Positions 191 to 29,655 of a DNA stretch of 48,502 bases are shown here, piece by piece. The position numbers and the translations under genes are program-made. The DNA comes from Escherichia phage Lambda. The notes under the pieces are model-generated. The model had not been told where the DNA came from. It did not search any database and saw only the letters and a program-made list of their open reading frames with translations. The DNA lies in sequence record NC_001416.1; one strand, given 5' to 3'. Numbering within the stretch: position 1 is the first letter of the stretch; the number at the start of each line of letters is the position of its first letter.

Positions 191-710
191 ATGGAAGTCA
201 ACAAAAAGCAGCTGGCTGACATTTTCGGTGCGAGTATCCGTACCATTCAGAACTGGCAGGAACAGGGAATGCCCGTTCTGCGAGGCGGTGGCAAGGGTAA
301 TGAGGTGCTTTATGACTCTGCCGCCGTCATAAAATGGTATGCCGAAAGGGATGCTGAAATTGAGAACGAAAAGCTGCGCCGGGAGGTTGAAGAACTGCGG
401 CAGGCCAGCGAGGCAGATCTCCAGCCAGGAACTATTGAGTACGAACGCCATCGACTTACGCGTGCGCAGGCCGACGCACAGGAACTGAAGAATGCCAGAG
501 ACTCCGCTGAAGTGGTGGAAACCGCATTCTGTACTTTCGTGCTGTCGCGGATCGCAGGTGAAATTGCCAGTATTCTCGACGGGCTCCCCCTGTCGGTGCA
601 GCGGCGTTTTCCGGAACTGGAAAACCGACATGTTGATTTCCTGAAACGGGATATCATCAAAGCCATGAACAAAGCAGCCGCGCTGGATGAACTGATACCG
701 GGGTTGCTGA

Positions 711-736
<26 letters not shown>
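191..736 (+). CDS. nu1: Terminase small subunit gpNu1
   Basis: ORF track 191..736 (181 aa); first gene after cos; overlaps start of A. Confidence 0.95.
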
Positions 737-4417
<3,681 letters not shown>

Positions 4418-4437
<20 letters not shown>

Positions 4438-5737
4438 TCTCCCGCATATTGCCAGCATGGCCTTTAATGAGCCGCTGATGCTTGAACCCGCCTATGCGCG
4501 GGTTTTCTTTTGTGCGCTTGCAGGCCAGCTTGGGATCAGCAGCCTGACGGATGCGGTGTCCGGCGACAGCCTGACTGCCCAGGAGGCACTCGCGACGCTG
4601 GCATTATCCGGTGATGATGACGGACCACGACAGGCCCGCAGTTATCAGGTCATGAACGGCATCGCCGTGCTGCCGGTGTCCGGCACGCTGGTCAGCCGGA
4701 CGCGGGCGCTGCAGCCGTACTCGGGGATGACCGGTTACAACGGCATTATCGCCCGTCTGCAACAGGCTGCCAGCGATCCGATGGTGGACGGCATTCTGCT
4801 CGATATGGACACGCCCGGCGGGATGGTGGCGGGGGCATTTGACTGCGCTGACATCATCGCCCGTGTGCGTGACATAAAACCGGTATGGGCGCTTGCCAAC
4901 GACATGAACTGCAGTGCAGGTCAGTTGCTTGCCAGTGCCGCCTCCCGGCGTCTGGTCACGCAGACCGCCCGGACAGGCTCCATCGGCGTCATGATGGCTC
5001 ACAGTAATTACGGTGCTGCGCTGGAGAAACAGGGTGTGGAAATCACGCTGATTTACAGCGGCAGCCATAAGGTGGATGGCAACCCCTACAGCCATCTTCC
5101 GGATGACGTCCGGGAGACACTGCAGTCCCGGATGGACGCAACCCGCCAGATGTTTGCGCAGAAGGTGTCGGCATATACCGGCCTGTCCGTGCAGGTTGTG
5201 CTGGATACCGAGGCTGCAGTGTACAGCGGTCAGGAGGCCATTGATGCCGGACTGGCTGATGAACTTGTTAACAGCACCGATGCGATCACCGTCATGCGTG
5301 ATGCACTGGATGCACGTAAATCCCGTCTCTCAGGAGGGCGAATGACCAAAGAGACTCAATCAACAACTGTTTCAGCCACTGCTTCGCAGGCTGACGTTAC
5401 TGACGTGGTGCCAGCGACGGAGGGCGAGAACGCCAGCGCGGCGCAGCCGGACGTGAACGCGCAGATCACCGCAGCGGTTGCGGCAGAAAACAGCCGCATT
5501 ATGGGGATCCTCAACTGTGAGGAGGCTCACGGACGCGAAGAACAGGCACGCGTGCTGGCAGAAACCCCCGGTATGACCGTGAAAACGGCCCGCCGCATTC
5601 TGGCCGCAGCACCACAGAGTGCACAGGCGCGCAGTGACACTGCGCTGGATCGTCTGATGCAGGGGGCACCGGCACCGCTGGCTGCAGGTAACCCGGCATC
5701 TGATGCCGTTAACGATTTGCTGAACACACCAGTGTAA
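4418..5737 (+). CDS. C: Prohead protease/scaffold gpC (GTG start)
   Basis: ORF track 4283..5737; recognised start is GTG at 4418 (VTAELRN...), overlapping B stop. Confidence 0.88.
5132..5737 (+). CDS. nu3: Scaffolding protein gpNu3, in-frame nested within C
   Basis: In-frame ATG at 5132 inside C reading frame; established lambda nested gene. Confidence 0.85.
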   Translation: MDATRQMFAQKVSAYTGLSVQVVLDTEAAVYSGQEAIDAGLADELVNSTDAITVMRDALDARKSRLSGGRMTKETQSTTVSATASQADVTDVVPATEGENASAAQPDVNAQITAAVAAENSRIMGILNCEEAHGREEQARVLAETPGMTVKTARRILAAAPQSAQARSDTALDRLMQGAPAPLAAGNPASDAVNDLLNTPV

Positions 5738-7201: not shown

Positions 7202-7600
7202 ATGACGAAAGATGAACTGATTGCCCGTCTCCGCTCGCTGGGTGAACAACTGAACCGTGATGTCAGCCTGACGGGGACGAAAGAAGAACTGGCGCTCCGT
7301 GTGGCAGAGCTGAAAGAGGAGCTTGATGACACGGATGAAACTGCCGGTCAGGACACCCCTCTCAGCCGGGAAAATGTGCTGACCGGACATGAAAATGAGG
7401 TGGGATCAGCGCAGCCGGATACCGTGATTCTGGATACGTCTGAACTGGTCACGGTCGTGGCACTGGTGAAGCTGCATACTGATGCACTTCACGCCACGCG
7501 GGATGAACCTGTGGCATTTGTGCTGCCGGGAACGGCGTTTCGTGTCTCTGCCGGTGTGGCAGCCGAAATGACAGAGCGCGGCCTGGCCAGAATGCAATAA
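7202..7600 (+). CDS. FI: DNA packaging/head assembly protein gpFI
   Basis: ORF track 7163..7600; recognised start MTKDELIARL at 7202. Confidence 0.9.
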   Translation: MTKDELIARLRSLGEQLNRDVSLTGTKEELALRVAELKEELDDTDETAGQDTPLSRENVLTGHENEVGSAQPDTVILDTSELVTVVALVKLHTDALHATRDEPVAFVLPGTAFRVSAGVAAEMTERGLARMQ

Positions 7601-7611
7601 CGGGAGGCGCT

Positions 7612-7965
7612 GTGGCTGATTTCGATAACCTGTTCGATGCTGCCATTGCCCGCGCCGATGAAACGATACGCGGGTACATGGGAACGTCAGCCACCATTAC
7701 ATCCGGTGAGCAGTCAGGTGCGGTGATACGTGGTGTTTTTGATGACCCTGAAAATATCAGCTATGCCGGACAGGGCGTGCGCGTTGAAGGCTCCAGCCCG
7801 TCCCTGTTTGTCCGGACTGATGAGGTGCGGCAGCTGCGGCGTGGAGACACGCTGACCATCGGTGAGGAAAATTTCTGGGTAGATCGGGTTTCGCCGGATG
7901 ATGGCGGAAGTTGTCATCTCTGGCTTGGACGGGGCGTACCGCCTGCCGTTAACCGTCGCCGCTGA
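7612..7965 (+). CDS. FII: Head-tail connector protein gpFII
   Basis: ORF track 7612..7965 (117 aa). Confidence 0.93.
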   Translation: MADFDNLFDAAIARADETIRGYMGTSATITSGEQSGAVIRGVFDDPENISYAGQGVRVEGSSPSLFVRTDEVRQLRRGDTLTIGEENFWVDRVSPDDGGSCHLWLGRGVPPAVNRRR

Positions 7966-7976
7966 AAGGGGGATGT

Positions 7977-8555
7977 ATGGCCATAAAAGGTCTTGAGCAG
8001 GCCGTTGAAAACCTCAGCCGTATCAGCAAAACGGCGGTGCCTGGTGCCGCCGCAATGGCCATTAACCGCGTTGCTTCATCCGCGATATCGCAGTCGGCGT
8101 CACAGGTTGCCCGTGAGACAAAGGTACGCCGGAAACTGGTAAAGGAAAGGGCCAGGCTGAAAAGGGCCACGGTCAAAAATCCGCAGGCCAGAATCAAAGT
8201 TAACCGGGGGGATTTGCCCGTAATCAAGCTGGGTAATGCGCGGGTTGTCCTTTCGCGCCGCAGGCGTCGTAAAAAGGGGCAGCGTTCATCCCTGAAAGGT
8301 GGCGGCAGCGTGCTTGTGGTGGGTAACCGTCGTATTCCCGGCGCGTTTATTCAGCAACTGAAAAATGGCCGGTGGCATGTCATGCAGCGTGTGGCTGGGA
8401 AAAACCGTTACCCCATTGATGTGGTGAAAATCCCGATGGCGGTGCCGCTGACCACGGCGTTTAAACAAAATATTGAGCGGATACGGCGTGAACGTCTTCC
8501 GAAAGAGCTGGGCTATGCGCTGCAGCATCAACTGAGGATGGTAATAAAGCGATGA
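7977..8555 (+). CDS. Z: Tail completion protein gpZ
   Basis: ORF track 7977..8555 (192 aa). Confidence 0.93.
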   Translation: MAIKGLEQAVENLSRISKTAVPGAAAMAINRVASSAISQSASQVARETKVRRKLVKERARLKRATVKNPQARIKVNRGDLPVIKLGNARVVLSRRRRRKKGQRSSLKGGGSVLVVGNRRIPGAFIQQLKNGRWHVMQRVAGKNRYPIDVVKIPMAVPLTTAFKQNIERIRRERLPKELGYALQHQLRMVIKR

Positions 8556-8947
8556 AACATACTGAACTCCGTGCAGCCGTACTGGATGCACTGGAGAAGC
8601 ATGACACCGGGGCGACGTTTTTTGATGGTCGCCCCGCTGTTTTTGATGAGGCGGATTTTCCGGCAGTTGCCGTTTATCTCACCGGCGCTGAATACACGGG
8701 CGAAGAGCTGGACAGCGATACCTGGCAGGCGGAGCTGCATATCGAAGTTTTCCTGCCTGCTCAGGTGCCGGATTCAGAGCTGGATGCGTGGATGGAGTCC
8801 CGGATTTATCCGGTGATGAGCGATATCCCGGCACTGTCAGATTTGATCACCAGTATGGTGGCCAGCGGCTATGACTACCGGCGCGACGATGATGCGGGCT
8901 TGTGGAGTTCAGCCGATCTGACTTATGTCATTACCTATGAAATGTGA
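8552..8947 (+). CDS. U: Tail terminator protein gpU
   Basis: ORF track 8552..8947 (131 aa). Confidence 0.93.
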
Positions 8948-8954
8948 GGACGCT

Positions 8955-9695
8955 ATGCCTGTACCAAATCCTACAATGCCGGTGAAAGGTGCCGGGACCA
9001 CCCTGTGGGTTTATAAGGGGAGCGGTGACCCTTACGCGAATCCGCTTTCAGACGTTGACTGGTCGCGTCTGGCAAAAGTTAAAGACCTGACGCCCGGCGA
9101 ACTGACCGCTGAGTCCTATGACGACAGCTATCTCGATGATGAAGATGCAGACTGGACTGCGACCGGGCAGGGGCAGAAATCTGCCGGAGATACCAGCTTC
9201 ACGCTGGCGTGGATGCCCGGAGAGCAGGGGCAGCAGGCGCTGCTGGCGTGGTTTAATGAAGGCGATACCCGTGCCTATAAAATCCGCTTCCCGAACGGCA
9301 CGGTCGATGTGTTCCGTGGCTGGGTCAGCAGTATCGGTAAGGCGGTGACGGCGAAGGAAGTGATCACCCGCACGGTGAAAGTCACCAATGTGGGACGTCC
9401 GTCGATGGCAGAAGATCGCAGCACGGTAACAGCGGCAACCGGCATGACCGTGACGCCTGCCAGCACCTCGGTGGTGAAAGGGCAGAGCACCACGCTGACC
9501 GTGGCCTTCCAGCCGGAGGGCGTAACCGACAAGAGCTTTCGTGCGGTGTCTGCGGATAAAACAAAAGCCACCGTGTCGGTCAGTGGTATGACCATCACCG
9601 TGAACGGCGTTGCTGCAGGCAAGGTCAACATTCCGGTTGTATCCGGTAATGGTGAGTTTGCTGCGGTTGCAGAAATTACCGTCACCGCCAGTTAA
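8955..9695 (+). CDS. V: Major tail tube protein gpV
   Basis: ORF track 8925..9695; recognised start [10 protein letters not shown] at 8955. Confidence 0.93.
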
Positions 9696-9710
9696 TCCGG
9701 AGAGTCAGCG

Positions 9711-10133
9711 ATGTTCCTGAAAACCGAATCATTTGAACATAACGGTGTGACCGTCACGCTTTCTGAACTGTCAGCCCTGCAGCGCATTGAGCATCTCGCC
9801 CTGATGAAACGGCAGGCAGAACAGGCGGAGTCAGACAGCAACCGGAAGTTTACTGTGGAAGACGCCATCAGAACCGGCGCGTTTCTGGTGGCGATGTCCC
9901 TGTGGCATAACCATCCGCAGAAGACGCAGATGCCGTCCATGAATGAAGCCGTTAAACAGATTGAGCAGGAAGTGCTTACCACCTGGCCCACGGAGGCAAT
10001 TTCTCATGCTGAAAACGTGGTGTACCGGCTGTCTGGTATGTATGAGTTTGTGGTGAATAATGCCCCTGAACAGACAGAGGACGCCGGGCCCGCAGAGCCT
10101 GTTTCTGCGGGAAAGTGTTCGACGGTGAGCTGA
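9711..10133 (+). CDS. G: Tail assembly chaperone gpG
   Basis: ORF track 9711..10133 (140 aa). Confidence 0.93.
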   Translation: MFLKTESFEHNGVTVTLSELSALQRIEHLALMKRQAEQAESDSNRKFTVEDAIRTGAFLVAMSLWHNHPQKTQMPSMNEAVKQIEQEVLTTWPTEAISHAENVVYRLSGMYEFVVNNAPEQTEDAGPAEPVSAGKCSTVS

Positions 10134-10549
10134 GTTTTGCCCTGAAACTGGCGCGTGAGATGGGGCGACCCGACTGGCGTGCCATGCTTGCCGGGATGTC
10201 ATCCACGGAGTATGCCGACTGGCACCGCTTTTACAGTACCCATTATTTTCATGATGTTCTGCTGGATATGCACTTTTCCGGGCTGACGTACACCGTGCTC
10301 AGCCTGTTTTTCAGCGATCCGGATATGCATCCGCTGGATTTCAGTCTGCTGAACCGGCGCGAGGCTGACGAAGAGCCTGAAGATGATGTGCTGATGCAGA
10401 AAGCGGCAGGGCTTGCCGGAGGTGTCCGCTTTGGCCCGGACGGGAATGAAGTTATCCCCGCTTCCCCGGATGTGGCGGACATGACGGAGGATGACGTAAT
10501 GCTGATGACAGTATCAGAAGGGATCGCAGGAGGAGTCCGGTATGGCTGA
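9711..10549 (+). CDS. T: Tail assembly chaperone gpG-T fusion made by programmed -1 frameshift at slippery GGGAAAG (10109-10115); T part is 10115..10549
   Basis: G frame codons GCG GGA AAG read at 10107-10115; -1 frame ORF 10115..10549 (ORF track 10115..10549) continues to H start. Confidence 0.88.
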
Positions 10550-24508: not shown

Positions 24509-25399
24509 CTAGATCCCTCTGAAAAAATCTTCCGAGTTTGCTAGGCACTGATACATAACTCTTTTCCAATAATTGGGGAAGTCATTCAAATCTATAATAG
24601 GTTTCAGATTTGCTTCAATAAATTCTGACTGTAGCTGCTGAAACGTTGCGGTTGAACTATATTTCCTTATAACTTTTACGAAAGAGTTTCTTTGAGTAAT
24701 CACTTCACTCAAGTGCTTCCCTGCCTCCAAACGATACCTGTTAGCAATATTTAATAGCTTGAAATGATGAAGAGCTCTGTGTTTGTCTTCCTGCCTCCAG
24801 TTCGCCGGGCATTCAACATAAAAACTGATAGCACCCGGAGTTCCGGAAACGAAATTTGCATATACCCATTGCTCACGAAAAAAAATGTCCTTGTCGATAT
24901 AGGGATGAATCGCTTGGTGTACCTCATCTACTGCGAAAACTTGACCTTTCTCTCCCATATTGCAGTCGCGGCACGATGGAACTAAATTAATAGGCATCAC
25001 CGAAAATTCAGGATAATGTGCAATAGGAAGAAAATGATCTATATTTTTTGTCTGTCCTATATCACCACAAAATGGACATTTTTCACCTGATGAAACAAGC
25101 ATGTCATCGTAATATGTTCTAGCGGGTTTGTTTTTATCTCGGAGATTATTTTCATAAAGCTTTTCTAATTTAACCTTTGTCAGGTTACCAACTACTAAGG
25201 TTGTAGGCTCAAGAGGGTGTGTCCTGTCGTAGGTAAATAACTGACCTGTCGAGCTTAATATTCTATATTGTTGTTCTTTCTGCAAAAAAGTGGGGAAGTG
25301 AGTAATGAAATTATTTCTAACATTTATCTGCATCATACCTTCCGAGCATTTATTAAGCATTTCGCTATAAGTTCTCGCTGGAAGAGGTAGTTTTTTCAT
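24509..25399 (-). CDS. ea31: Ea31, HNH-motif nuclease-like protein
   Basis: ORF track 24509..25399 (296 aa); CPFCG...DH...N...CRDCN HNH motif (aa 108-147, nt 24959-25078). Confidence 0.9.
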   Translation of the reverse strand: MKKLPLPARTYSEMLNKCSEGMMQINVRNNFITHFPTFLQKEQQYRILSSTGQLFTYDRTHPLEPTTLVVGNLTKVKLEKLYENNLRDKNKPARTYYDDMLVSSGEKCPFCGDIGQTKNIDHFLPIAHYPEFSVMPINLVPSCRDCNMGEKGQVFAVDEVHQAIHPYIDKDIFFREQWVYANFVSGTPGAISFYVECPANWRQEDKHRALHHFKLLNIANRYRLEAGKHLSEVITQRNSFVKVIRKYSSTATFQQLQSEFIEANLKPIIDLNDFPNYWKRVMYQCLANSEDFFRGI

Positions 25400-26973
25400 T
25401 GTACTTTACCTTCATCTCTGTTCATTATCATCGCTTTTAAAACGGTTCGACCTTCTAATCCTATCTGACCATTATAATTTTTTAGAATGGTTTCATAAGA
25501 AAGCTCTGAATCAACGGACTGCGATAATAAGTGGTGGTATCCAGAATTTGTCACTTCAAGTAAAAACACCTCACGAGTTAAAACACCTAAGTTCTCACCG
25601 AATGTCTCAATATCCGGACGGATAATATTTATTGCTTCTCTTGACCGTAGGACTTTCCACATGCAGGATTTTGGAACCTCTTGCAGTACTACTGGGGAAT
25701 GAGTTGCAATTATTGCTACACCATTGCGTGCATCGAGTAAGTCGCTTAATGTTCGTAAAAAAGCAGAGAGCAAAGGTGGATGCAGATGAACCTCTGGTTC
25801 ATCGAATAAAACTAATGACTTTTCGCCAACGACATCTACTAATCTTGTGATAGTAAATAAAACAATTGCATGTCCAGAGCTCATTCGAAGCAGATATTTC
25901 TGGATATTGTCATAAAACAATTTAGTGAATTTATCATCGTCCACTTGAATCTGTGGTTCATTACGTCTTAACTCTTCATATTTAGAAATGAGGCTGATGA
26001 GTTCCATATTTGAAAAGTTTTCATCACTACTTAGTTTTTTGATAGCTTCAAGCCAGAGTTGTCTTTTTCTATCTACTCTCATACAACCAATAAATGCTGA
26101 AATGAATTCTAAGCGGAGATCGCCTAGTGATTTTAAACTATTGCTGGCAGCATTCTTGAGTCCAATATAAAAGTATTGTGTACCTTTTGCTGGGTCAGGT
26201 TGTTCTTTAGGAGGAGTAAAAGGATCAAATGCACTAAACGAAACTGAAACAAGCGATCGAAAATATCCCTTTGGGATTCTTGACTCGATAAGTCTATTAT
26301 TTTCAGAGAAAAAATATTCATTGTTTTCTGGGTTGGTGATTGCACCAATCATTCCATTCAAAATTGTTGTTTTACCACACCCATTCCGCCCGATAAAAGC
26401 ATGAATGTTCGTGCTGGGCATAGAATTAACCGTCACCTCAAAAGGTATAGTTAAATCACTGAATCCGGGAGCACTTTTTCTATTAAATGAAAAGTGGAAA
26501 TCTGACAATTCTGGCAAACCATTTAACACACGTGCGAACTGTCCATGAATTTCTGAAAGAGTTACCCCTCTAAGTAATGAGGTGTTAAGGACGCTTTCAT
26601 TTTCAATGTCGGCTAATCGATTTGGCCATACTACTAAATCCTGAATAGCTTTAAGAAGGTTATGTTTAAAACCATCGCTTAATTTGCTGAGATTAACATA
26701 GTAGTCAATGCTTTCACCTAAGGAAAAAAACATTTCAGGGAGTTGACTGAATTTTTTATCTATTAATGAATAAGTGCTTACTTCTTCTTTTTGACCTACA
26801 AAACCAATTTTAACATTTCCGATATCGCATTTTTCACCATGCTCATCAAAGACAGTAAGATAAAACATTGTAACAAAGGAATAGTCATTCCAACCATCTG
26901 CTCGTAGGAATGCCTTATTTTTTTCTACTGCAGGAATATACCCGCCTCTTTCAATAACACTAAACTCCAACAT
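25396..26973 (-). CDS. ea59: Ea59, ABC/SMC-type ATPase with N-terminal extra domain
   Basis: ORF track 25396..26973 (525 aa); Walker A GRNGCGKTT (nt 26365-26391), Walker B LVLFDEPE (nt 25792-25815), H-loop IIATHSP; ATGA overlap with ea31. Confidence 0.9.
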   Translation of the reverse strand: MLEFSVIERGGYIPAVEKNKAFLRADGWNDYSFVTMFYLTVFDEHGEKCDIGNVKIGFVGQKEEVSTYSLIDKKFSQLPEMFFSLGESIDYYVNLSKLSDGFKHNLLKAIQDLVVWPNRLADIENESVLNTSLLRGVTLSEIHGQFARVLNGLPELSDFHFSFNRKSAPGFSDLTIPFEVTVNSMPSTNIHAFIGRNGCGKTTILNGMIGAITNPENNEYFFSENNRLIESRIPKGYFRSLVSVSFSAFDPFTPPKEQPDPAKGTQYFYIGLKNAASNSLKSLGDLRLEFISAFIGCMRVDRKRQLWLEAIKKLSSDENFSNMELISLISKYEELRRNEPQIQVDDDKFTKLFYDNIQKYLLRMSSGHAIVLFTITRLVDVVGEKSLVLFDEPEVHLHPPLLSAFLRTLSDLLDARNGVAIIATHSPVVLQEVPKSCMWKVLRSREAINIIRPDIETFGENLGVLTREVFLLEVTNSGYHHLLSQSVDSELSYETILKNYNGQIGLEGRTVLKAMIMNRDEGKVQ

Positions 26974-27543
26974 ATAGTAACCCTTAATTTTATTAAAATA
27001 ACCGCAATTTATTTGGCGGCAACACAGGATCTCTCTTTTAAGTTACTCTCTATTACATACGTTTTCCATCTAAAAATTAGTAGTATTGAACTTAACGGGG
27101 CATCGTATTGTAGTTTTCCATATTTAGCTTTCTGCTTCCTTTTGGATAACCCACTGTTATTCATGTTGCATGGTGCACTGTTTATACCAACGATATAGTC
27201 TATTAATGCATATATAGTATCGCCGAACGATTAGCTCTTCAGGCTTCTGAAGAAGCGTTTCAAGTACTAATAAGCCGATAGATAGCCACGGACTTCGTAG
27301 CCATTTTTCATAAGTGTTAACTTCCGCTCCTCGCTCATAACAGACATTCACTACAGTTATGGCGGAAAGGTATGCATGCTGGGTGTGGGGAAGTCGTGAA
27401 AGAAAAGAAGTCAGCTGCGTCGTTTGACATCACTGCTATCTTCTTACTGGTTATGCAGGTCGTAGTGGGTGGCACACAAAGCTTTGCACTGGATTGCGAG
27501 GCTTTGTGCTTCTCTGGAGTGCGACAGGTTTGATGACAAAAAA

Positions 27544-27577
27544 TTAGCGCAAGAAGACAAAAATCACCTTGCGCTAA
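27544..27577 (-). terminator. sib: tI terminator / sib hairpin (retroregulation site downstream of int)
   Basis: ttagcgcaag ... cttgcgctaa inverted repeat downstream of int on the minus strand. Confidence 0.7.
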
Positions 27578-27723
27578 TGCTCTGTTACAGGTCACTAATA
27601 CCATCTAAGTAGTTGATTCATAGTGACTGCATATGTTGTGTTTTACAGTATTATGTAGTCTGTTTTTTATGCAAAATCTAATTTAATATATTGATATTTA
27701 TATCATTTTACGTTTCTCGTTCA

Positions 27724-27738
27724 GCTTTTTTATACTAA
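27724..27738 (+). other. attP: attP 15-bp common core (gcttttttatactaa); full attP arms extend roughly 150 bp left and 80 bp right
   Basis: Core sequence read in an AT-rich region immediately downstream of int. Confidence 0.92.
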
Positions 27739-27811
27739 GTTGGCATTATAAAAAAGCATTGCTTATCAATTTGTTGCAACGAACAGGTCACTATCAGTCA
27801 AAATAAAATCA

Positions 27812-28882
27812 TTATTTGATTTCAATTTTGTCCCACTCCCTGCCTCTGTCATCACGATACTGTGATGCCATGGTGTCCGACTTATGCCCGAGAAGATGTT
27901 GAGCAAACTTATCGCTTATCTGCTTCTCATAGAGTCTTGCAGACAAACTGCGCAACTCGTGAAAGGTAGGCGGATCCCCTTCGAAGGAAAGACCTGATGC
28001 TTTTCGTGCGCGCATAAAATACCTTGATACTGTGCCGGATGAAAGCGGTTCGCGACGAGTAGATGCAATTATGGTTTCTCCGCCAAGAATCTCTTTGCAT
28101 TTATCAAGTGTTTCCTTCATTGATATTCCGAGAGCATCAATATGCAATGCTGTTGGGATGGCAATTTTTACGCCTGTTTTGCTTTGCTCGACATAAAGAT
28201 ATCCATCTACGATATCAGACCACTTCATTTCGCATAAATCACCAACTCGTTGCCCGGTAACAACAGCCAGTTCCATTGCAAGTCTGAGCCAACATGGTGA
28301 TGATTCTGCTGCTTGATAAATTTTCAGGTATTCGTCAGCCGTAAGTCTTGATCTCCTTACCTCTGATTTTGCTGCGCGAGTGGCAGCGACATGGTTTGTT
28401 GTTATATGGCCTTCAGCTATTGCCTCTCGGAATGCATCGCTCAGTGTTGATCTGATTAACTTGGCTGACGCCGCCTTGCCCTCGTCTATGTATCCATTGA
28501 GCATTGCCGCAATTTCTTTTGTGGTGATGTCTTCAAGTGGAGCATCAGGCAGACCCCTCCTTATTGCTTTAATTTTGCTCATGTAATTTATGAGTGTCTT
28601 CTGCTTGATTCCTCTGCTGGCCAGGATTTTTTCGTAGCGATCAAGCCATGAATGTAACGTAACGGAATTATCACTGTTGATTCTCGCTGTCAGAGGCTTG
28701 TGTTTGTGTCCTGAAAATAACTCAATGTTGGCCTGTATAGCTTCAGTGATTGCGATTCGCCTGTCTCTGCCTAATCCAAACTCTTTACCCGTCCTTGGGT
28801 CCCTGTAGCAGTAATATCCATTGTTTCTTATATAAAGGTTAGGGGGTAAATCCCGGCGCTCATGACTTCGCCTTCTTCCCAT
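27812..28882 (-). CDS. int: Integrase (tyrosine recombinase)
   Basis: ORF track 27812..28882 (356 aa). Confidence 0.96.
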   Translation of the reverse strand: MGRRRSHERRDLPPNLYIRNNGYYCYRDPRTGKEFGLGRDRRIAITEAIQANIELFSGHKHKPLTARINSDNSVTLHSWLDRYEKILASRGIKQKTLINYMSKIKAIRRGLPDAPLEDITTKEIAAMLNGYIDEGKAASAKLIRSTLSDAFREAIAEGHITTNHVAATRAAKSEVRRSRLTADEYLKIYQAAESSPCWLRLAMELAVVTGQRVGDLCEMKWSDIVDGYLYVEQSKTGVKIAIPTALHIDALGISMKETLDKCKEILGGETIIASTRREPLSSGTVSRYFMRARKASGLSFEGDPPTFHELRSLSARLYEKQISDKFAQHLLGHKSDTMASQYRDDRGREWDKIEIK

Positions 28883-29078
28883 TTCTGATCCTCTTCAAAA
28901 GGCCACCTGTTACTGGTCGATTTAAGTCAACCTTTACCGCTGATTCGTGGAACAGATACTCTCTTCCATCCTTAACCGGAGGTGGGAATATCCTGCATTC
29001 CCGAACCCATCGACGAACTGTTTCAAGGCTTCTTGGACGTCGCTGGCGTGCGTTCCACTCCTGAAGTGTCAAGTACAT
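28860..29078 (-). CDS. xis: Excisionase
   Basis: ORF track 28860..29078 (72 aa); overlaps int start. Confidence 0.95.
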   Translation of the reverse strand: MYLTLQEWNARQRRPRSLETVRRWVRECRIFPPPVKDGREYLFHESAVKVDLNRPVTGGLLKRIRNGKKAKS

Positions 29079-29373
29079 CGCAAAGTCTCCGCAATTACAC
29101 GCAAGAAAAAACCGCCATCAGGCGGCTTGGTGTTCTTTCAGTTCTTCAATTCGAATATTGGTTACGTCTGCATGTGCTATCTGCGCCCATATCATCCAGT
29201 GGTCGTAGCAGTCGTTGATGTTCTCCGCTTCGATAACTCTGTTGAATGGCTCTCCATTCCATTCTCCTGTGACTCGGAAGTGCATTTATCATCTCCATAA
29301 AACAAAACCCGCCGTAGCGAGTTCAGATAAAATAAATCCCCGCGAGTGCGAGGATTGTTATGTAATATTGGGT

Positions 29374-29655
29374 TTAATCATCTATATGTTTTGTACAGAG
29401 AGGGCAAGTATCGTTTCCACCGTACTCGTGATAATAATTTTGCACGGTATCAGTCATTTCTCGCACATTGCAGAATGGGGATTTGTCTTCATTAGACTTA
29501 TAAACCTTCATGGAATATTTGTATGCCGACTCTATATCTATACCTTCATCTACATAAACACCTTCGTGATGTCTGCATGGAGACAAGACACCGGATCTGC
29601 ACAACATTGATAACGCCCAATCTTTTTGCTCAGACTCTAACTCATTGATACTCAT
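29374..29655 (-). CDS. ea8.5: Ea8.5 (Cys/His-rich small protein)
   Basis: ORF track 29374..29655 (93 aa). Confidence 0.88.
   Translation of the reverse strand: MSINELESEQKDWALSMLCRSGVLSPCRHHEGVYVDEGIDIESAYKYSMKVYKSNEDKSPFCNVREMTDTVQNYYHEYGGNDTCPLCTKHIDD

Follow-up and report, generated by a model that had tools for sequence, protein, structure and literature searches.

Septu is a two-gene defence system in which an ATPase (PtuA) acts with an HNH nuclease (PtuB), and defence needs the motifs of both. The E. coli PtuAB proteins form a 6:2 complex (8EE4/8EE7), and ATP inhibits its nicking of DNA; tRNA-Tyr is depleted by both Septu Ec-B88 and retron Eco7, and the PtuAB of retron Eco4 cuts single-stranded DNA. 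In the window analysed here, which is the whole 48,502-nucleotide stretch of Escherichia phage Lambda (record NC_001416.1), two adjoining minus-strand genes of the b region, ea59 and ea31, very likely encode an ATPase-nuclease of this type. Judging from its sequence, the pair is not a textbook Septu but a divergent member of the family, which corresponds to PADLOC subtype PDC-M01.

Compared with stand-alone Septu, which is Septu type I in PADLOC, Ea59 has an extra N-terminal domain of about 150 amino acids (aa), with the Walker A lysine at K201 instead of K43 as in Septu Ec-B88, and Ea31 reaches 296 aa, including a 93-aa N-terminal extension, where the five PtuB proteins compared are about 215-260 aa long; moreover, the lambda copy is phage-borne and probably expressed in the lytic programme. 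The retrons of type I-A (the PtuAB of Ec78/Eco7 and Ec83/Eco4, also called 'Septu type II') have an upstream reverse transcriptase and an msr/msd non-coding RNA, whereas the lambda pair adjoins neither. Rfam gives no retron RNA in 22000-29500, and what lies upstream of ea59 is a leader, an inverted repeat, attP and int; a retron association was consequently rejected. OLD, Gabija GajA and PARIS AriA share the ABC-ATPase sensor class with Ea59, which matches OLD (6p74) and AriA weakly, but they pair or fuse their ATPase with a TOPRIM nuclease, whereas the nuclease of Ea59 is a separate HNH protein. The first-pass annotation, made on this stretch from its letters only, had described Ea59 as having no TOPRIM-like tail. 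Pfam agrees, finding no TOPRIM domain in the protein, whose C-terminus is helical in the structure model, and an OLD/TOPRIM architecture was rejected on that ground. PDC-M01, with its A and B components, supplies the best-scoring label for both lambda proteins, which match it adjacently and over their full lengths; it is a computational candidate class to which no phenotype or mechanism is attached.

Part of this was within reach long ago. A paper on a lambda endonuclease, by its title (Benchimol 1982), precedes the present reading, and the title of Zhou, Deng, Hopwood and Kieser (1994) announces a phage (phiHAU3) resistance gene of Streptomyces lividans 66 similar to lambda ea59, so that, by that title, an ea59-like gene confers phage resistance; this is the one indirect support for a protective action of the Septu kind. 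The first-pass annotation, which knew of no established role in lambda, had missed both papers. 'Phage Hau3 resistance protein' is also the name carried by an Ea59 homologue (P0082) that is 53-54% identical and has an overlapping Ea31-like partner. In the searchable literature, no paper naming both ea59 and Septu was found. The lambda endonuclease of 1982 is said to have been ATP-dependent and made of the Ea59 and Ea31 polypeptides. Already known, then, are the presence of the family in defence databases (PADLOC PtuA and PDC-M01), a lambda enzyme and a link to phage resistance, the last two published decades ago. What appears to be new in the searchable literature is that lambda ea59-ea31 is assigned to Septu explicitly, that its two additional N-terminal modules are defined, and that lytic growth is pointed out as the time when lambda would express it.

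The two proteins and their relation to PtuA and PtuB

The ea59-ea31 segment is 2,465 bp long and 100% identical, at equal coordinates, in Escherichia phage Lambda records. When the sequence was read again, the two open reading frames (ORFs), their ATGA overlap and all the motif coordinates first assigned to Ea59 and Ea31 came out exactly as annotated (Table 1). The AT-rich location claimed for the pair was also recovered, GC content being 34-40% over both genes against 49-61% in segments covering 18000-22499 to the left.

Table 1. Coordinates of the ea59-ea31 genes, their protein motifs and domains, and neighbouring elements in the window
Feature	Position	Strand	Remarks
ea59 coding sequence	25396..26973	-	525 aa; PtuA-like ABC-type ATPase; exact match to EA59_LAMBD
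ea31 coding sequence	24509..25399	-	296 aa; PtuB-like HNH nuclease; exact match to EA31_LAMBD
ATGA stop/start overlap (ea59 stop, ea31 start)	25396..25399	-	read from the sequence; translational coupling
Walker A GRNGCGKTT, Ea59 aa 195-203	26365..26391	-	N197, G198, G200, K201 invariant (72 sequences)
ABC-signature-like MSSGH, Ea59 aa 364-368	25870..25884	-	S365, G367, H368 invariant (72 sequences)
Walker B LVLFDEPE, Ea59 aa 387-394	25792..25815	-	D391, E392, P393, E394 invariant (72 sequences)
H-loop IIATHSP, Ea59 aa 421-427	25693..25713	-	T424, H425, S426, P427 invariant (72 sequences)
Ea59 residues 1-150, family-specific N-terminal domain	26524..26973	-	conserved across the family; no Pfam/PDB sequence match
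Ea31 residues 1-93, N-terminal extension	25121..25399	-	no counterpart in canonical PtuB; hhalign match starts at residue 94
Ea31 residues 94-267	24599..25120	-	homologous to nearly all of PtuB (Ec78 PtuB 29-192); hhalign 98.0%
HNH core and two CxxC pairs (C108/C111, D121-H122, N138, C143/C146-N147)	24959..25078	-	invariant in 72 family members
Cassette leader, about 133 nt, travels with the genes	26974..27106	-	shared with L003 and L083 up to about 27106
Cassette trailer, about 183 nt, travels with the genes	24326..24508	-	shared with L003 and L083 as far as about 24326-24335
Inverted repeat between int and ea59 (context)	27536..27585	.	18-nt arms, 83% complementary
attP core (context)	27724..27738	+	unique exact match; 750 nt upstream of the ea59 start

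The invariance of residues was judged in two alignments of 72 diverse family members, one for each protein. In Ea31, the motifs are CPFCG (aa 108-112), DH (aa 121-122, nt 25034-25039), N138 and CRDCN (aa 143-147), with C108, C111, D121, H122, N138, C143 and C146 kept in every sequence; and since the key residues of Ea59 and Ea31 do not vary across such alignments, their motifs are no chance occurrence. These alignments and the profile matches that follow place Ea59 among the ABC/SMC-type ATPases of the PtuA lineage, its set of nucleotide-binding motifs (Walker A, Walker B, signature and H-loop) being complete and invariant. They also show that the HNH nuclease Ea31 shares homology with PtuB across some 170 residues and that its metal- and zinc-binding residues are likewise invariant. 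The genes are arranged as in Septu, in a two-gene operon with the ATPase first and the nuclease directly downstream.

A Septu-like architecture was what the first-pass annotation had claimed, with searches in Pfam and PADLOC proposed as the check, and the claim is borne out by those searches, by alignment to canonical PtuA and PtuB and by the conserved pairing described below. In Pfam, Ea59 passes the cut-off of both AAA_21 (E 1.3e-16) and AAA_15 (8e-13). In PADLOC, it matches PDC-M01A over residues 3-521 (E 3.9e-201) and the PtuA (Septu) model PDLC00282 over residues 4-522 (E 5.4e-184), hence the similarity to PtuA/PtuB, whose lack, along with that of any nuclease or exclusion phenotype, the same annotation had set down as fatal to its idea, is there and strong. 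Ea31 matches PDC-M01B over its full length (residues 1-294, E 5.8e-113). PHROGs holds a dedicated family for each of the two proteins, that of Ea31 (PHROG 10378, 'HNH endonuclease') matching at 4.9e-152. Compared with solved structures, the Ea59 family profile comes nearest to the PtuA of retron Ec78/Eco7 (4.5e-10) and reaches Septu PtuA 8ee4 at 3.4e-5, and that of Ea31 matches the HNH domains of PtuB and of other nucleases in the Protein Data Bank (PDB).

As a canonical set we took five PtuA/PtuB pairs from plasmid records (the one of retron Ec78 and stand-alone ones from Rhizobium, Bacillus thuringiensis, Vibrio and Bacillus). The Ea59 family aligns to these PtuA in hhalign at 99.0% (E 2.3e-18) and the Ea31 family to these PtuB at 98.0% (E 2.4e-13), over 141 columns that extend past the HNH core. 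All five canonical PtuB score on PADLOC PtuB models and only one matches a PDC-M01B model, at 1.7e-10, which makes the Ea31 family a separate branch; the top 25 PADLOC matches of Ea31 itself are all to PDC-M01B and none to PtuB. In the Bacillus cereus group, PDC-M01 calls of PADLOC coincide with Septu calls of DefenseFinder.

Each protein has a part that canonical Septu proteins do not. The unassigned N-terminal domain that the first-pass annotation saw in Ea59 is present, yet the length of about 190 aa given to it was too great: residues 159-194 are modelled as beta strands running into the P-loop and the alignment of one PDC-M01A model begins at residue 128, which places the domain at about residues 1-150. 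Within it, W28, D30, G52, K55, S84, Y92 and R135 are nearly invariant in the family. A search with it finds 1,341 relatives at E<=1e-3 in a representative library, with the match starting within the first 40 or so residues in 149 of the 150 best relatives, full-size proteins being about 500-560 aa long; as far as that search goes, the domain seems to be found essentially only at the N-terminus of the Ea59 family. The best match among PDB sequences, to SarX at E 0.017, is not credible, and Pfam gives nothing for the lambda protein and a GhoS family match in only six of 70 members (best E 0.0011), from which no assignment was made. The N-terminal extension of Ea31 is predicted to be helical, with pLDDT 81-95, and has a median identity across the family of 22%.

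Pairing, distribution and mobility of the cassette

Homologues were sought in one genome per species, which gave 440 stretches encoding an Ea59 relative, and in viral contigs, which gave 41 loci. Pairing was then counted in 123 loci, three of which are cut by a contig end; wherever enough DNA is present, in 120 of 120, the next gene downstream on that strand is an Ea31 homologue. The junction is between -17 and +11 nt in 118 of the 120; the genes overlap in 86, and 47 of them do so by 4 nt as in lambda. The identities of both proteins to their lambda counterparts co-vary (Spearman 0.83), and against close copies the ratio of non-synonymous to synonymous substitution (dN/dS) is 0.08-0.18 for both genes. 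By these comparisons, ea59 and ea31 are coupled in translation, inherited and evolving together and subject to purifying selection, the coupling and co-divergence being consistent with a complex of the two proteins. The same pairing bears on the idea that the whole is a homing element, in which Ea31 acts alone as an HNH homing endonuclease and Ea59 is an accessory or an unrelated passenger. A phage-borne HNH nuclease within sharp cassette boundaries would suit that idea, but a nuclease without its ATPase was never seen among the 120 loci, the two co-diverge, the family resides mainly in bacterial chromosomes at varied insertion sites, and Ea31 is homologous to PtuB and not to homing enzymes; of all the explanations weighed here, it is the one to which we give the least credence.

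In Simiduia aestuariiviva (L038, 11584-12430), the gene for the Ea31 homologue seems to have been disrupted: what is left, 137 aa, lies 432 nt past an intact ATPase gene. The gene ea47, to the left of the pair in lambda, was considered as a third component and rejected, having no homologue at any of the 123 loci and no match in PADLOC, Pfam or NCBIfam.

Nucleotide homology between lambda and the closest copies (69-93% identity; 93% in Kosakonia locus L003 and 69-92% in viral contigs L083-L087) is confined to about 24326-27106. Because it stops sharply there and the flanks are unrelated, ea59-ea31 is a mobile cassette, discrete and about 2.8 kb long, in which the genes travel with their own leader and trailer. 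The trailer holds an inverted repeat, GGCAGGTCA-N10-TGACCTGCC, at about 24370-24400 on the minus strand; L003 and L083 have it in perfect form, in L084 and L087 it is weaker and the lambda copy is degenerate, and no T-run follows it, so it is no typical terminator. A 28-aa ORF (MMKDRKLRRLSEVNEYFLYEEGCFYKIR) also falls in the trailer, at about 24417-24503 (minus strand), beginning a few nt past the ea31 stop. In the closest copies an indel and a stop codon interrupt this frame, which is therefore probably no gene and was rejected as one.

Such a discrete unit, with unrelated flanks from genome to genome, would equally be expected of a selfish addiction cassette of the toxin-antitoxin (TA) kind, in which Ea31 is a toxin held in check by Ea59 and the unit is kept because its loss does harm. 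The PtuAB of retron Eco7 is toxic on release, and the Pfam label of AAA_21 reads 'putative AbiEii toxin, type IV TA system'. On the other hand, the pair is routinely and easily deleted from lambda with no toxicity reported; the DE3 copy is truncated, and in one strain an IS2 interrupts the pair. This explanation seems quite unlikely to us, and it is hard to tell from the one we prefer, defence and addiction not being mutually exclusive.

The hosts of Ea59 relatives span Gamma-, Beta- and Alphaproteobacteria, Cyanobacteria, Bacteroidota, Chloroflexota and Desulfobacterota. In about eight loci of unrelated genomes the pair comes directly after hsdM-hsdS-hsdR; in L065 (8769-15720) it sits between hsdS and hsdR, and in L013 (2775-12440) it is fused on as the last part of an hsdM-hsdM-hsdS-hsdR operon, the start of the ATPase gene overlapping the stop of hsdR. 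The 128 immediate neighbours include six matches to HsdR and three each to GajA, GajB, DRT and AriA, though one protein may account for more than one of these matches. At least 14 loci have tyrosine integrases, and five viral ones have S24 repressor-like genes upstream. One prophage copy (L087) adjoins a J-like tail gene, an ATPase and a Dam methylase; another (L083) has DnaT/YdaT genes and a cloacin-type bacteriocin nearby. In Pseudomonas mendocina, the pair has inserted on its own between housekeeping genes. E. coli itself has a 65%-identical pair in an integrase/AlpA/RadC island, beside a three-gene system of CTD1/MComp1/SMC_N type (L130-L132, with genes at 326-5076 and 7254-10492). On the strength of these neighbours, the family is found in defence-type neighbourhoods. 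The pair of L130-L132 is widespread in E. coli assemblies, and a same-strand, unannotated 242-aa ORF precedes it.

By DNA similarity, the cassette occurs among 50,697 phage records only in lambda and its closest kin. This narrow phage distribution tells against taking the enzyme for a nuclease of lambda's own DNA transactions (recombination, or the processing of replication intermediates or packaging substrates), or for one that damages host DNA, and not for a defence enzyme. The homologues are overwhelmingly two-gene cassettes of chromosomes and islands, without phage replication or packaging genes and in some cases inside restriction-modification operons, and in lambda both genes are non-essential, plaque formation and lysogeny proceeding without them. 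What such a nuclease would have in its favour is that the early leftward transcript carries the genes, with int, xis and the recombination genes as neighbours, together with a secondary citation in which the 1982 enzyme is called single-stranded-DNA-dependent. We regard this explanation as improbable. The enzyme reportedly came from a laboratory working on lambda DNA packaging, with a companion paper on packaging in vitro.

The lambda allele (>=99% identity) is present in 91 of 5,426 complete E. coli genomes, those listed being mostly of K-12 or J53 laboratory lineages. Incomplete copies were met as well. The DE3 prophages of BL21(DE3) and relatives keep only about the first 290 codons of ea59 (26104-26973) and have no ea31, phage O276 keeps only part of the cassette, and in E. 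coli ATCC BAA-196 (NZ_CP042865.1) an IS2 element splits the module in two. Because the module is missing or truncated in common lambda vectors and in the DE3 prophage, phenotypes may differ between strains that all go by the name of lambda.

Expression, proposed action and competing explanations

A sigma-70 promoter scan of the minus strand in 26974-27811 gave no site, and 8 sites overall, fewer than the 13.1 expected from shuffled sequences. The conserved leader has a weak -10-like TGTAAT and no -35. A promoter of its own is therefore treated as absent from the cassette, as far as such motifs can be recognised. By established lambda biology, ea59 and ea31 would be reached by N-antiterminated transcription from pL across an intact attP; in the integrated prophage they would lie at the far end beside attR, separated from int and pL. 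Being downstream of int, attP and the inverted repeat on the pL transcript, and with no recognisable promoter, the cassette is probably made in early lytic development and not in the quiescent lysogen, a conclusion drawn from map position and lambda biology. We take the inverted repeat between int and ea59 to mark the position of the lambda sib/tI element.

The explanation that we consider probable overall is that ea59-ea31 is a mobile, Septu-type ATPase-nuclease cassette acting on competing mobile DNA. It would be a self-contained, horizontally mobile unit of two genes encoding a divergent complex of this type. By analogy with the characterised PtuAB of Septu and retrons, Ea59 would oligomerise and keep Ea31 inactive within the complex, until a nucleic-acid or protein cue from an invader, sensed through the Ea59 ATPase and perhaps through its family-specific N-terminal domain, alters the state of the ATPase and lets the HNH nuclease cut DNA or possibly tRNA. 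During lambda lytic growth, the targets could be co-infecting phages, plasmids or satellites. As to the biological role taken by itself, that of an ATPase sensor gating an HNH nuclease against competing mobile DNA, our analysis leans towards it with moderate confidence. A more specific version, in which the early lytic programme of a temperate phage (pL, N antitermination and an intact attP) runs a Septu-type nuclease as a weapon between elements, and the 150-aa extension of Ea59 and the 93-aa one of Ea31 together make up a new module for sensing or regulation, which may respond to single-stranded DNA and would tell self from competitor, is tentative and, as it stands, doubtful.

Early-lytic placement, as proposed above, would also suit a role in counter-defence, where a phage nuclease stimulated by single-stranded DNA destroys nucleic acids of host defences, such as the multicopy single-stranded DNA (msDNA) of retrons or other single-stranded signals, early in infection. 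The dependence on single-stranded DNA ascribed at second hand to the 1982 enzyme would fit, as would the binding of msDNA by retron PtuA, but direct evidence is absent and most family members are found in bacterial chromosomes beside defence genes and not in lytic phages, so that we hold such a role to be very unlikely. Taken together, the alternatives fit the strict pairing, the distribution over chromosomes and defence islands and the dispensability of the genes less well than the Septu-type explanation does.

Several points weigh against the Septu-type explanation, nonetheless. Some concern the identity of the proteins. Pfam HNH stays below its cut-off on Ea31 (E 0.032; 14.8 bits against 21.4), so that the HNH search proposed in the first-pass annotation failed in Pfam whilst PDC-M01B in PADLOC and PtuB in hhalign were matched; fold searches with Ea31 are weakly concordant with PtuB; the NCBIfam equivalog for retron PtuA gives Ea59 48 bits against a cut-off of 500, and the PtuB subfamily TIGR02646 gives Ea31 13.5 bits against 52. 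The label that PADLOC attaches to the nuclease partner is PDC-M01B and not PtuB, and PDC-M01 is itself an unvalidated candidate label, the PDC systems of PADLOC being unpublished candidates. Others concern the role: ea59-ea31 has no known phenotype in lambda, the majority of the 128 immediate neighbours of the family are no known defence genes, and canonical Septu works through growth arrest or abortive infection, and does so in uninfected-lineage hosts, which leaves the benefit to a phage in its own lytic cycle unexplained.

Lambda is the reference temperate phage, and the 'ea' genes of its b region are nevertheless still treated as disposable cargo space. A specialist would not be greatly surprised by the placement in Septu; its value lies in giving a concrete function, directly testable in the best-understood phage, to an enzyme that has been an orphan for 40 years. 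The lambda pair is also a tractable relative of Septu, given the existing genetics, the ease of deletion and the purification already published. And it raises the question of what role a defence nuclease of the growth-arrest type could have when the phage itself expresses it in lytic growth.

Minor observations

Exact or partial lambda Ea59 and Ea31 also appear in entries for Streptococcus pneumoniae, Mycobacterium tuberculosis, Listeria, Enterococcus, Mycoplasmopsis and others, and the record of 'Campylobacter phage CJLB-4' (MW057783.1) is 100% identical over the segment. Contamination with lambda control DNA, or mislabelling, is the likeliest source of these odd-host records.

Between ea31 and ea47 lies a 63-aa ORF initiated by GTG (24095-24286, minus strand), which the Lambda imm21 record lists as a 'hypothetical protein'. 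Further to the left, about 170 nt from the ea47 stop, Rfam RF02111 (IS009) matches the plus strand at 22316-22514 with 217.7 bits, its gathering score being 117; we take this position to be within the tail-fibre assembly gene tfa and the match to be unrelated to ea59-ea31.

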